A stretch of DNA of 64,000 nt, from NCBI RefSeq assembly GCF_024502345.1, contig NZ_JALDNN010000001.1. One strand, given 5' to 3'. A program made the position numbers and the translations under genes. Below the pieces are notes generated by a model that saw nothing but the letters and a program-made list of their open reading frames with translations, ran no database searches and was not told where the DNA came from. This stretch comes from Escherichia coli (GTDB lineage Bacteria; Pseudomonadota; Gammaproteobacteria; Enterobacterales; Enterobacteriaceae). Of this stretch, positions 5,543 to 9,922 are shown in pieces (position 1 is the first letter of the stretch; each line of letters opens with the position of its first letter).

Positions 5543-5861
5543 ACCACCGTTCGGATGGCATCGTTCTGATGTCGTCCGGCAATTTACTCAGCACTAATGG
5601 TTTTTAACTACCTGTTATATTTTTCACCAATTTATGATGATTTTTCTTCGCTAATCACGAACCCAACGCCGCTGGCTGGCTAATAAACAGACGTTATTTG
5701 ATCACTCTTTTTCGCCGTTATTTATCCCTTTAATTCCCTTTTCTAAAATGCCTGACAGTTCGCAGAATGAGATTTCGATCATGCAGCTAGTGCGATCCTG
5801 AACTAAGGTTTTCTGATACTTGAATACCGTTTTATTCGGTTTCGCCTAAGGAGAATGATTG

Positions 5862-7559
5862 ATGAAATCCCCCGCACCTTCTCGCCCGCAAAAAATGGCG
5901 TTAATTCCAGCCTGCATCTTTTTGTGTTTCGCTGCGCTATCGGTGCAGGCAGAAGAAACACCGGTAACGCCACAGCCGCCTGATATTTTATTAGGGCCGC
6001 TGTTTAATGATGTGCAAAACGCCAAGCTTTTTCCGGACCAAAAAACCTTTGCCGATGCCGTGCCGAACAGCGATCCGCTGATGATCCTTGCTGATTATCG
6101 GATGCAGCAAAACCAGAGCGGATTTGATCTGCGCCATTTCGTTAACGTCAATTTCACCCTGCCGAAAGAGGGCGAGAAATATGTTCCGCCAGAGGGGCAG
6201 TCACTGCGCGAACATATTGACGGACTTTGGCCGGTATTAACGCGTTCTACCGAAAACACCGAAAAATGGGATTCTCTGTTACCGCTGCCGGAACCTTATG
6301 TCGTGCCAGGCGGACGTTTTCGCGAGGTATATTACTGGGACAGTTACTTCACCATGTTAGGACTTGCCGAAAGCGGTCACTGGGATAAAGTCGCGGATAT
6401 GGTGGCCAATTTTGCTCATGAAATAGACACTTACGGTCATATTCCCAACGGCAACCGCAGTTACTATTTAAGCCGCTCGCAACCGCCCTTCTTTGCCCTG
6501 ATGGTAGAGTTACTGGCGCAGCATGAAGGCGATGCCGCGTTGAAGCAATACCTGCCGCAAATGCAAAAAGAATATGCTTACTGGATGGACGGTGTTGAAA
6601 ACCTGCAAGCCGGACAACAGGAAAAACGCGTTGTAAAACTTCAGGATGGTACCCTTCTCAACCGCTACTGGGACGATCGCGATACGCCACGACCAGAGTC
6701 ATGGGTGGAAGATATTGCCACCGCCAAAAGCAATCCGAATCGACCTGCCACTGAAATTTACCGCGACTTGCGCTCTGCCGCTGCGTCTGGCTGGGATTTC
6801 AGCTCGCGCTGGATGGACAACCCGCAGCAGTTAAATACCATACGCACCACCAGCATCGTACCGGTCGATCTGAACAGCCTGATGTTTAAAATGGAAAAAA
6901 TTCTCGCCCGCGCCAGCAAAGTTGCCGGAGATAACGCGATGGCAAACCAGTACGAAACGCTGGCAAATGCCCGTCAAAAAGGGATCGAAAAATACCTGTG
7001 GAACGATCAACAAGGCTGGTATGCCGATTACGACCTGAAAAGTCATAAAGTGCGCAATCAGTTAACCGCTGCCGCCCTGTTCCCGCTGTACGTCAATGCG
7101 GCAGCGAAAGATCGCGCCAGCAAAATGGCGACGGCGACGAAAACACATCTGCTGCAACCCGGCGGCCTGAACACCACGTCGGTGAAAAGTGGGCAACAAT
7201 GGGATGCGCCAAATGGTTGGGCACCGTTGCAGTGGATCGCGACAGAAGGATTACAAAACTACGGGCAAAAAGAGGTGGCGATGGACATTAGCTGGCACTT
7301 CCTGACCAATGTTCAGCACACCTATGACCGCGAGAAAAAGCTGGTGGAAAAGTATGATGTCAGCACCACCGGAACGGGGGGCGGCGGTGGCGAATATCCA
7401 TTACAGGATGGCTTTGGCTGGACCAATGGCGTGACGCTGAAAATGCTGGATTTGATCTGCCCGAAAGAGCAACCGTGTGACAATGTTCCGGCGACGCGTC
7501 CACTCAGTGAATCAACAACACAGCCGGTAAAACAAAAAGAGGCGGAACCTACGCCTTAA
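5862..7559 (+). CDS. treA: Periplasmic trehalase TreA
   Basis: 565 aa from [11 protein letters not shown]..., signal peptide plus glycoside hydrolase 37 body; matches remembered TreA except a slightly different C-terminal tail. Confidence 0.95.
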
Positions 7560-7588
7560 CTTTGCTGTATATCGAGGCTGTATATCGA

Positions 7589-7629
7589 GCAATGCCATTA
7601 TGTGCATAAAATTGGCATTGCTCTTTTTT
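7589..7629 (+). terminator. Rho-independent terminator downstream of treA
   Basis: Stem GCAATGCCA / TGGCATTGC with a 15-nt loop followed by TCTTTTTT. Confidence 0.55.
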
Positions 7630-7853
7630 CGCCACGAAATGCCCCCCACTCTACGGTCTATGCCTTTATTTTCTTTTATTAGAGAAGATTTTAATTTTAT
7701 TTTATCAATTTGTTAATCATTACACCTCTATTTATATTTTTCGCCACTCCGCCATTCTCCCTGACAATTTTCTTGTGGAACAAAGTGTTATTTAAGCAAC
7801 AAGCAAATCACTCTGTCTCTTTAGACAAATTTTGACATCAAACATGATTTTTT

Positions 7854-7877
7854 CGATATATATGTAAATATATAGCG
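7854..7877. promoter_or_regulatory. AT-rich dyad CGATATAT-atgtaa-ATATATAGCG, candidate ModE-type (molybdate-responsive) operator 25-48 bp upstream of the accessory operon start
   Basis: Contains TATAT-N7-TATAT flanked by CG; 20 of 24 positions self-complementary; resembles the ModE operator consensus as I recall it. Confidence 0.35.
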
Positions 7878-7901
7878 GTTTTAATTATCAGGATATAACT
7901 T

Positions 7902-8924
7902 ATGTCACTAACCAGACGGAGGTTTACACAGATTCTTGCGTCGACGTTGTTCCTGCATCATCTGCCTTCTTTTGCACAATCAGTCAAATTCTGGGCCTCA
8001 CTGACGCTTCCCGAAGCCCAAAACATTACACGCATCGTCAGCGCAGGTGCGCCCGCCGATTTGCTATTGCTGGCTGTCGCGCCAGAAAAAATGGTCGGTT
8101 TTTCCTCTTTTGATTTTGCCCGTCAGGCATTAATTCCATTGCCAGAGCACATTCGCCAGTTACCCAGGCTGGGACGACTCGCCGGGCGCGCCAGCACACT
8201 CTCGCTGGAAGGGCTTATGGCGTTACATCCCGATTTGGTCGTTGATTGCGGCAATACGGATGAAACCTGGATCTCCCAGGCACGGCAGGTTAGCGAACAG
8301 ACACAAATACCCTGGTTATTGCTTAACGGGAAACTGGCGCAATCAGCAGAACAGTTAACAACGCTTGGCAAAACGTTAGGCGAAGAGCATCGCGCCGCAG
8401 AACAAGCCAATCTCGCCAGCCGCTTCGTTGGTGAAGCTCAGGCATTCGCCGCCTCACCCGCCGCTAACCTCCGCTTTTATGCTGCGCGCGGTCCTCGAGG
8501 GCTGGAAACGGGCTTAAAGGGTTCGTTGCATACCGAGGCGGCGGAATTATTAGGTTTGCACAACGTCGCGCAAATAGCCGATCGCCACGGCCTGACACAG
8601 GTTTCCATGGAAAATCTCCTGCGCTGGCAGCCGGATATTATTCTGGTTCAGGAGGCCGTTACTGCAGATTTTATTCGTCGTGATCCTCTCTGGCATGGCG
8701 TGAAAGCCGTTGCGGAACAACGCATCTTATTTTTAAGTGGCTTGCCCTTTGGCTGGCTGGATGCCCCACCGGGAATCAACCGTCTTCTGGGATTACGCAG
8801 ACTTCACGCCTGGCTGGATCCCGCCATCAATCGCCAGTTTAAAAGTGACATGCAGCATTACGCCCAACTGTTCTGGCATTGTTCACTCAGTGACGCCGAC
8901 TATCAAAAATTGGTGGCGAGCTAA
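7902..8924 (+). CDS. Periplasmic substrate-binding protein, FecB/BtuF-like (class III), with twin-arginine-like N-terminus
   Basis: 340 aa; N-terminus MSLTRRRFTQILASTLFL... (RRxF Tat-like motif followed by hydrophobic stretch); first gene of a tightly packed operon. Confidence 0.8.
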   Translation: MSLTRRRFTQILASTLFLHHLPSFAQSVKFWASLTLPEAQNITRIVSAGAPADLLLLAVAPEKMVGFSSFDFARQALIPLPEHIRQLPRLGRLAGRASTLSLEGLMALHPDLVVDCGNTDETWISQARQVSEQTQIPWLLLNGKLAQSAEQLTTLGKTLGEEHRAAEQANLASRFVGEAQAFAASPAANLRFYAARGPRGLETGLKGSLHTEAAELLGLHNVAQIADRHGLTQVSMENLLRWQPDIILVQEAVTADFIRRDPLWHGVKAVAEQRILFLSGLPFGWLDAPPGINRLLGLRRLHAWLDPAINRQFKSDMQHYAQLFWHCSLSDADYQKLVAS

Positions 8925-9922
8925 TGAGAATCGTAAACGGATGTATTTTGCTGCTGGCAGCTATCAGTATCACTTTTGCCGCCGTAAGTGGGGCTTATCA
9001 TCTCGATATGCAGCAACTGCTGGCGCTAATTCTTCGTCAAGAAAATGTTCCTGTGCAGGAACAAATTGTCTTCTGGCAAATCCGCGTGCCGCGTATTCTT
9101 GCTGCGCTGTTACTGGGCGCGGCGCTGTTACTGGGCGCGGCGCTGGCAGGAGCCGGAACCACTTATCAGGGAATGTTGCGTAATCCCTTAGTTTCACCGG
9201 ATATTTTAGGCGTCTCCGCCGGTGCCGGACTTGGTGCCTGCGCGGCAATCCTGTGGGGATTATCCATTGTTTACATCCAGCTGTACGCATTTTGCGGCGG
9301 GCTGATGGTGGTCGCGGGCGTCTGGTTGATTACGCGTCGGGTGACCCGCCACGATCCGATCTTAACCCTGGTGCTGGTAGGCATTGCGTTAGGAACGTTG
9401 TGCGGAGCGGGGATATCGCTAATTAAAACGCTGGCCGATCCTTACACCCAGTTACCGTCAATTACCTTCTGGTTGCTGGGGGGACTGTCCACCGTGACCT
9501 TACGCGATCTCTGCTATGCTGCACCGATCATTCTCATTGGCTCCTTGCCCCTGTTTTTTCTCCGCTGGCGCATGAATTTACTCACGCTTTCCGACGACGA
9601 AGCCCGTTCGCTGGGACTGAACGTGACGCGTCTGCGCTTTGGATTGATTGTCTGCGCCACACTAATCACCGCCAGTACGGTAGCAATAGCGGGCATAATT
9701 GGTTGGGTCGGCCTGGTCGTTCCGCACATTGCCCGCTTGTTGACCGGTCATAACCATCAGCAGCTGTTGCCCATGGCAATGTGTACTGGCGCGATTCTGC
9801 TCCTGCTGACCGATACGCTGGCACGCAGCATTGGAACAACAGAAATCCCACTTGGCATTCTGACCGCTTTTGTTGGCGCACCGTTTTTCCTGCTTTTGTT
9901 GTTACGCGGAGGTCGCCAGTGA
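8924..9922 (+). CDS. ABC transporter permease, FecCD/BtuC family
   Basis: 332 aa, highly hydrophobic multi-TM protein; start overlaps the upstream stop (ATGA-type junction). Confidence 0.85.
   Translation: MRIVNGCILLLAAISITFAAVSGAYHLDMQQLLALILRQENVPVQEQIVFWQIRVPRILAALLLGAALLLGAALAGAGTTYQGMLRNPLVSPDILGVSAGAGLGACAAILWGLSIVYIQLYAFCGGLMVVAGVWLITRRVTRHDPILTLVLVGIALGTLCGAGISLIKTLADPYTQLPSITFWLLGGLSTVTLRDLCYAAPIILIGSLPLFFLRWRMNLLTLSDDEARSLGLNVTRLRFGLIVCATLITASTVAIAGIIGWVGLVVPHIARLLTGHNHQQLLPMAMCTGAILLLLTDTLARSIGTTEIPLGILTAFVGAPFFLLLLLRGGRQ

Follow-up and report, generated by a model that had tools for sequence, protein, structure and literature searches.

Does the substrate-binding protein encoded at 7902-8924 (+ strand) of a 64,000-nucleotide stretch of Escherichia coli DNA leave the cytoplasm already folded, by way of twin-arginine translocation (Tat), and, if so, does this imply that it carries a metal or cofactor out with it? 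The stretch, hereafter the window, belongs to contig NZ_JALDNN010000001.1 of assembly GCF_024502345.1, and an earlier note on it had raised both points from the N-terminus of this FecB-type protein, proposing that Tat export would fit a metal-cofactor role for the operon. We infer that the twin-arginine signal is probably genuine and that the protein is probably exported mainly via Tat, on the strength of the motif, the low hydrophobicity over 10-12 residues, the signal peptidase I site and the strict conservation of the arginine pair across genera. A published Tat-export test of this protein was not found in the literature searched. The reason for the choice of pathway is, however, most likely a different one from that in the earlier note.

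The gene has a 340-residue translation, and its N-terminus, MSLTRRRFTQILASTLFLHHLPSFAQSVKF, matches the one quoted in that note. The first start codon in the open frame is the ATG at 7902, and a Shine-Dalgarno-like AGGA read from the sequence (7890-7893, + strand) stands 8 nt 5' of it; since the second methionine comes only at residue 64, the N-terminus is not in doubt. It reads MSLTRRRFTQILASTLFLHHLPSFA, followed after the predicted cleavage by QS. Translation, the TatP pattern and an orthologue alignment together mark residues 1-25 (7902-7976, + strand) as a predicted Tat-type signal peptide. Its twin-arginine motif, T4-R5-R6-R7-F8-T9-Q10 (7911-7931, + strand), satisfies four of the six defined positions of the consensus S/T-R-R-x-F-L-K (T, R, R and F), with T in place of L and Q in place of K. 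The default TatP pattern, RR.[FGAVML][LITMVF], is matched from residue 5; by itself, this pattern matches 7% of Gram-negative proteins exported by the general secretory (Sec) pathway (PMC1182353). R5-R6 are encoded at 7914-7919 (AGA CGG) and R7 at 7920-7922, so that the 5' end of the gene holds three successive rare arginine codons, AGA CGG AGG (7914-7922).

Downstream of the motif, the h-region (F8-L21, 7923-7964, + strand) holds a short hydrophobic core, ILASTLFL, between Q10 and H19-H20. The signal peptide has best Kyte-Doolittle means of 2.38, 1.48 and 1.23 for windows of 8, 10 and 12 residues, respectively. On the 10-residue scale, E. coli Sec signals lie at 2.50 ± 0.41 (n = 70) and Tat signals at 1.83 ± 0.28 (n = 25), and a value as low as 1.48 is seen in just 1 of the 70 Sec signals, which were taken from Table S1 of PMC5539426 (89 signals when lipoprotein signals are counted in). 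A signal peptidase I site is predicted after S23-F24-A25 and before Q26-S, with small residues at -3 and -1 and with H-H-L-P preceding it. In orthologues anchored on the arginine pair (RR), the alanine at -1 is the most conserved column of the c-region (74 of 95); position -3 holds A, G or S and position -4 holds Pro. The RRxF motif, hydrophobic core and A-x-A-like cleavage region that the earlier note had described are all borne out by the translation, as T-R-R-x-F, ILASTLFL and S-F-A, respectively. We also considered a lipoprotein or membrane-anchor reading and rejected it, given that residues 1-40 contain no cysteine and that the signal peptidase I site is both good and conserved.

Conservation in the orthologues was assessed with each distinct N-terminus counted once. 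Among those with at least 60% identity, [ST]-R-R-x-[FL] is kept in 65 of 67, and both exceptions are gene calls that start at the methionine right after the motif; between 45% and 60%, RR is present in 12 of 13, the exception carrying K-K-R. Overall, RR is kept in 77 of the 80 orthologue N-termini with at least 45% identity, in genera that include Escherichia, Citrobacter, Salmonella, Klebsiella, Serratia, Yersinia and Shewanella, and the motif consensus is [ST]-R-R-x-[FL]-[LA]-Q. Below 45%, the motif xRRx[FLIVMA] is found in 13/22, 9/37 and 3/44 of successively lower identity bins, and the distant homologues are mostly Sec-type or lipoproteins. The signal-peptide columns neighbouring RR have an entropy of 2-3 bits, and the pair itself is written in different codons, AGA CGG here and CGT AGA, CGT CGA or CGC CGC in the homologous loci L002, L003 and L005. 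That the pair persists through different codons while neighbouring columns drift indicates that the two arginines themselves are under selection. Within the family, core hydrophobicity is 1.84 for RR-type signals, 2.69 for non-RR signals and 2.92 for lipoprotein homologues, which mirrors the known difference between Tat and Sec signals. A lysine or arginine in the c-region, a Sec-avoidance feature, is present in 63 of 95 RR-type orthologues.

Base rates point the same way. Among the 89 Sec and lipoprotein signals of Table S1 (PMC5539426), RR occurs in 2 and the TatP pattern in 0. In the window, which has 98 open reading frames (ORFs) of at least 100 residues, only the binding protein combines the pattern with a signal-peptide-like uncharged stretch. 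The sole other ORF with the RR pattern and a long uncharged stretch (58705-59949, - strand) has a core of very high hydrophobicity (3.24), and the stretch is therefore a membrane helix and not a Tat signal. The product is presumably similar to a LolC/LolE-type permease.

Several observations nevertheless weigh against a Tat signal. The two Tat profile models, TIGR01409 and PF10518, did not match the N-terminus or the full protein even at E <= 10. At their curated cut-offs (16.7 and 22.7 bits, respectively), TIGR01409 passes six of nine known E. coli Tat signals, missing FhuD, AmiC and WcaM, and PF10518 passes two of the nine. Because both models also miss FhuD, a listed Tat substrate, their silence is weak evidence, which groups the peptide with atypical Tat signals and does not exclude it from Tat. 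The composition of the signal peptide (Leu 20%, Gly 0%, Ala 8%, compared with Leu 11% and Gly 7.6% in the Tat set) explains why the models miss it, and such a Leu-rich, Gly-free peptide is more Sec-like than the Gly/Ala-rich Tat norm, although a Gly/Ala-rich h-region is a typical and not an obligatory feature of Tat signals. Over 8 residues the core (2.38) is inside the Sec range, with 19% of Sec signals lower, and at 25 residues the peptide is slightly shorter than any in the E. coli Tat set of the present comparison (range 26-53 residues, median 32). In the E. coli allele, H19-H20 stand where most orthologues have Arg, and the c-region, with neither K nor R ahead of the cleavage site, offers no positive charge to block Sec. 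Finally, twin arginines are compatible with Sec, more than half of the tested E. coli Tat signals also engage Sec when given a Sec-compatible passenger, and in Bacillus subtilis most RR-motif candidates turned out to be Sec-dependent (PMC1182353).

Apart from peptide length and the Sec engagement of Tat signals, these observations, together with the 2 RR pairs among 89 sampled Sec and lipoprotein signals, speak for an ordinary Sec signal cleaved by signal peptidase I, whose charged n-region happens to be Arg-Arg-Arg and in which RR is inherited but functionally irrelevant. In a Sec n-region, however, lysine would do just as well, and paired lysines are found in 53 of 244 probable E. coli Sec signals, compared with 5 that have paired arginines (Huang and Palmer, PMC5539426). 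Yet RR and the F or L two positions later persist in 77 of 80 N-termini at 45% identity or above while all other positions drift, hydrophobicity over 10-12 residues is below that of 99% of Sec signals, and most orthologues carry the Sec-avoidance Arg. We therefore consider purely Sec-dependent export improbable.

Use of both pathways deserves more weight, and some Sec leakage is a realistic addition to Tat targeting. At the site of RH in Citrobacter and Salmonella, Escherichia alleles show HH, HP, PP or YH, and the Escherichia allele, having lost its c-region Arg, could be accepted by Tat and also leak through Sec when unfolded. The moderately hydrophobic 8-residue core and the Sec engagement seen in more than half of the tested E. 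coli Tat signals are consistent with this. On the other hand, overall hydrophobicity is very low, and K29, at +4 of the predicted mature protein, places a positive charge near the cleavage site; such a charge generally disfavours Sec. Genuine dual targeting is thus a possibility that we entertain with some doubt.

In the preferred reading, that of export mainly via Tat, the binding protein would be made with a short, cleavable twin-arginine signal and would cross to the periplasm already folded, mainly through TatABC. T4-R5-R6-x-F8 would be recognised by TatC, the short and weakly hydrophobic h-region would engage the signal recognition particle (SRP) and SecA poorly, and signal peptidase I would cleave after S-F-A25. 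The mature apo-protein would then act as an ordinary class III binding protein, taking its ligand from the TonB-dependent receptor encoded in the same gene island and passing it to the FecCD-type permease and its ATPase. Tat use would be a lineage-conserved trait of the orthologue group (Enterobacterales, Shewanella and other Proteobacteria), parallel to that of FhuD, and the reason for it would probably be fast or Sec-incompatible folding in the cytoplasm, not cofactor insertion.

That the passenger belongs to class III (Peripla_BP_2) is clear from its profile, its fold and the adjoining genes for a FecCD permease and an ATP-binding cassette (ABC) ATPase. The mature protein, encoded at 7977-8924 (+ strand, stop codon included), was assigned with PF01497, AlphaFold2, Foldseek and phmmer; the PF01497 score is 59.5 bits, compared with a cut-off of 27.5. 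The AlphaFold2 model, built with 69 homologues as input, has a mean predicted local distance difference test score (pLDDT) of 91.9 and a predicted template modelling score (pTM) of 0.87, and shows the signal peptide as a helix (residues 5-18), joined by a linker to the class III two-lobe fold, with the first beta-strand beginning at residue 30 and a long helix at residues 162-183. The top Foldseek matches are class III binding proteins without exception. The nearest solved structure is the uncharacterised 4pag of Sulfurospirillum deleyianum (27% identity; Foldseek template modelling score (TM-score) 0.78; E 8.6e-27 with phmmer against PDB), and further Foldseek or phmmer neighbours are TM0189 (TM-score 0.65), 4ovk, MolA (3psa, 0.65) and YiuA. 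The gene itself seems to decay often, given that the copy in strain 873.10 (L001:8204-9225) is a frameshifted pseudogene that lacks the C found at window position 8286 and that E. coli and Shigella database matches include many truncated or fused versions (e.g. P0013, P0017, P0084 and P0087).

Does Tat export then tell us what the protein carries? The earlier note had started from the premise that class III binding proteins normally use Sec, which holds for E. coli BtuF, FepB and FecB (Table S1, PMC5539426) but not for FhuD or for Pseudomonas aeruginosa FepB (PA4159), both listed Tat substrates; with these precedents, a Tat-routed class III binding protein is not unusual. Its further step, from Tat export to a protein that may fold with a cofactor or metal bound, is not supported: the same two proteins have no cofactor, and roughly one in three E. 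coli Tat substrates likewise has none. On the cofactor-loading reading, Tat would be needed since the protein has to acquire its cofactor or metal while still in the cytoplasm, as the Tat-exported Mn-cupin MncA does. In its favour, of the 28 Tat substrates of E. coli K-12, 19 are cofactor-binding, and the operon is tied to molybdenum or tungsten by the ModE box, ModD and TOBE neighbours described below. However, an uptake binding protein encoded beside a TonB-dependent receptor and an importer-type permease must arrive in the periplasm empty, the cofactor of both Tat-exported class III precedents is given as 'none predicted', and profile searches of the island genes found no chaperone-like or cofactor-insertion gene. 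A ModE-repressed operon would, moreover, be switched on under molybdate scarcity, which would make loading in the cytoplasm unlikely.

The homologues are informative here. P0149 and P0137 (38-39% identity) come from the same kind of operon, with TOBE or DUF2478/DUF364, binding protein, FecCD, ATPase and TonB-dependent receptor genes, and carry signals that are not of the Tat type: P0149 has no RR, and P0137 has an RR outside the Tat pattern. The export pathway thus appears to follow lineage, not function. Sec-type signals on homologues in like operons mean that Tat use is no sign of cytoplasmic cofactor loading, and we regard such loading as very unlikely to be the reason for the Tat signal. 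The metal-cofactor role that the earlier note had proposed for the operon does find partial support, though from other evidence, namely the ModE operator, ModD and the TOBE or ModA-like neighbours.

The operator is predicted by consensus match at 7852-7879 and reads TTCGATATATA-TGTAAA-TATATAGCGGT, with a palindromic core at 7854-7877. This core is an exact match to CGNTATATA-N6-TATATANCG and is unique in the window, and 0 of 100 shuffles match even when up to 2 mismatches are allowed. Compared with the E. coli ModE consensus ATCGNTATATA-N6-TATATANCGAT quoted in PMC545781, 18 of the 20 specified positions agree; scored likewise, the K-12 modA operator reaches 16/20, and no other site in the window exceeds 14/20. 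The box ends 22 nt 5' of the ATG at 7902 and lies just 3' of a perfect TTGACA at 7832-7837; a generic promoter scan gave weak candidates only. Homologous operons of other lineages have similar boxes: 17/20 at L003:7923-7950, 51 nt upstream of the binding-protein gene; 18/20 at L002:12577-12604, upstream of the receptor gene; and 20/20 at L005:4876-4903 and L006:439-466, upstream of an operon in which the receptor comes first.

The gene content of the homologous loci also links the whole binding-protein family to molybdenum or tungsten. TOBE (molybdate-binding) genes are present in L004, L007 and L011, L007 also has a ModA/TupA-like binding protein with its permease, and in L005 a molybdopterin formate-dehydrogenase-like operon adjoins. 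Genes for ModD and for DUF2478/DUF364 stand beside homologous binding-protein operons (loci surveyed: L004, L005, L007, L011 and L012), and L002 has a FUR-family gene just downstream. The 'iron' annotation of the operon is, by comparison, without specific support, as there is no convincing Fur box and no riboswitch. From treA to the ATG, no Fur-box match exceeds 13/19, a value that about 20 sites in the window reach and that gives no support for Fur control, and an Rfam E-value scan of 7400-8100 returned noise only, with no cobalamin or molybdenum-cofactor riboswitch. Given that molybdate-bound ModE represses molybdate uptake genes, the ModE boxes and the molybdenum-related neighbours indicate that the operon is probably molybdate-regulated, induced by molybdate shortage and serves the acquisition of molybdenum or tungsten. 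A fuller picture can be offered only tentatively, namely that the island is a ModE-repressed, TonB-dependent molybdenum or tungsten uptake system and not the iron system of its annotation, maybe for chelated or otherwise bulky species that would require an outer-membrane receptor, in which a Tat-exported MolA-like protein would hand the ligand to a type II importer and cytoplasmic ModD and a S-adenosylmethionine (SAM)-dependent methyltransferase would process it. We found no report on ModE control or on the Tat signal of this operon; earlier studies of ModE sites or Tat selectivity might hold one, and no priority is claimed.

The binding-protein gene lies on a 6.76-kb accessory island (7561-14322), whose limits come from aligning the K-12 treA-ycgR region to the window with blastn. 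At this site K-12 MG1655 has 622 unrelated bp that contain ycgY, and of 5426 complete E. coli genomes, 2148 have the binding-protein gene with its flanks (1.3-kb query, window 7700-9000). The island sits between treA (5859-7559), beyond which are dhaR and dhaKLM, and ymgE, beyond which are ycgR (14851-15585), emtA and ldcA. Its left junction shows a tandem 13-mer (GCTGTATATCGAG twice, about 7564-7589) together with the terminator hairpin of treA. The six island genes apparently form one operon, and the five that follow the binding-protein gene are likewise on the + strand. A FecCD-family permease of a type II ABC importer (8924-9922; PF01032, 286 bits) is followed by an ABC transporter ATPase (9919-10677; PF00005, 106 bits), whose GTG start at 9919 was taken from the RefSeq annotation of the same gene (NZ_CP061754). 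Next come a class I SAM-dependent methyltransferase (10687-11499), which has Methyltransf_31/25 matches, a weak match to the corrinoid-protein-associated methyltransferase CpaM and no signal peptide (cytoplasmic), and ModD, of the quinolinate phosphoribosyltransferase family (11496-12350; TIGR01334, 501 bits compared with a cut-off of 178.85; QRPTase_N and QRPTase_C). The last gene encodes the TonB-dependent outer-membrane receptor (12376-14346; Plug and TonB_dep_Rec_b-barrel domains; start from the RefSeq annotation), the signal of which, MRLKKRYLCTALSLAFTQQAVA, is of the Sec type. A literature search gave nothing specific on the island, or on ModD together with a TonB-dependent receptor.

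Two of these genes show short in-frame length changes. The permease has a perfect 18-bp tandem duplication (9104-9121 and 9122-9139; GCGCTGTTACTGGGCGCG twice), which adds ALLLGA to a transmembrane segment and is not present in strain 873.10. In modD, an 18-nt in-frame indel relative to the same strain (12190-12207) has a 9-bp direct repeat (CGCTGGCTC) at its flanks and thus probably arose by slippage.

If the Tat signal is real, it adds one strain-variable substrate to the E. coli Tat list, which was built on K-12, a strain without the island, and in the approximately 40% of E. coli strains with the island, a tat mutation would cost the cell this transporter as well. Among class III binding proteins, it would furthermore be the third with a Tat route, of use for the question why, within one fold, certain members need to be exported folded and close functional homologues rely on Sec. 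The likely ModE control is, however, the more promising lead. Everywhere the operon is annotated as 'iron', yet its ModE operator fits the consensus better than that of modA, and ModD, TOBE and ModA-like genes travel along with it. Hence, it offers a testable case for a TonB-dependent route of molybdenum or tungsten acquisition in enterobacteria; if that reading is true, the long-orphan ModD family gains a context and E. coli an unlisted, strain-specific Tat substrate.

Four known systems help to place these results. The first is SufI (FtsP), whose signal is the model E. coli Tat signal. Its n-region and motif, MSLSRRQFIQ, compare closely with MSLTRRRFTQ here, its signal is of similar length (27 residues, compared with 25 here) and its passenger has no cofactor. 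The h-region of SufI is, however, Gly/Ala-rich, its c-region has a Lys and it scores 24.8 bits on TIGR01409, whereas the peptide here is rich in Leu, Phe and His and gives no score. For the mature protein, a parallel is MolA (HI_1472) of Haemophilus influenzae, the molybdate/tungstate class III protein of the MolBC importer. The two share the fold (Foldseek TM-score 0.65, E 4e-15), local sequence similarity (phmmer E 5e-8 over residues 206-287, that is 82 residues), a type II ABC importer as partner and a connection to molybdenum, which is suggested here by the ModE box and ModD. At about 21% identity, the likeness is one of fold and partial sequence, and MolBC-A differs in having no linked TonB-dependent receptor, methyltransferase or ModD.

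The other two systems are the Tat-routed class III binding proteins themselves. P. aeruginosa FepB (PA4159) is among the 34 Tat substrates of the study that reported it, where it is marked 'This work', is predicted by both TATFIND and TatP and has no predicted cofactor. It resembles the protein studied here in its class, its very short n-region and its RRR (MPTRRRSALPLLALALSLFATLAAA), and differs in its annotated ligand (ferric enterobactin), its lineage and its more Ala/Leu-rich h-region. FhuD of E. coli and Salmonella, listed as a Tat substrate and without a cofactor, provides a close match in arrangement: it is a class III binding protein that works with a FecCD-type ABC importer downstream of a TonB-dependent receptor, and its short RR signal (MSGLPLISRRRLLTAMALSPLLWQMNTAHA) is likewise missed by TIGR01409 and PF10518. 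FhuD is, however, a core and Fur-regulated protein, whereas the binding-protein gene is part of an accessory island that has a ModE box but no convincing Fur box. There is no detectable BLASTP similarity between the two (best E 0.81), which places them on separate branches of the superfamily, and recent paralogy with FhuD was rejected as the source of the Tat signal on this ground. The protein is thus an independent example and not a paralogue that inherited its signal, and the Tat signal that it probably carries is a further example of a known arrangement.

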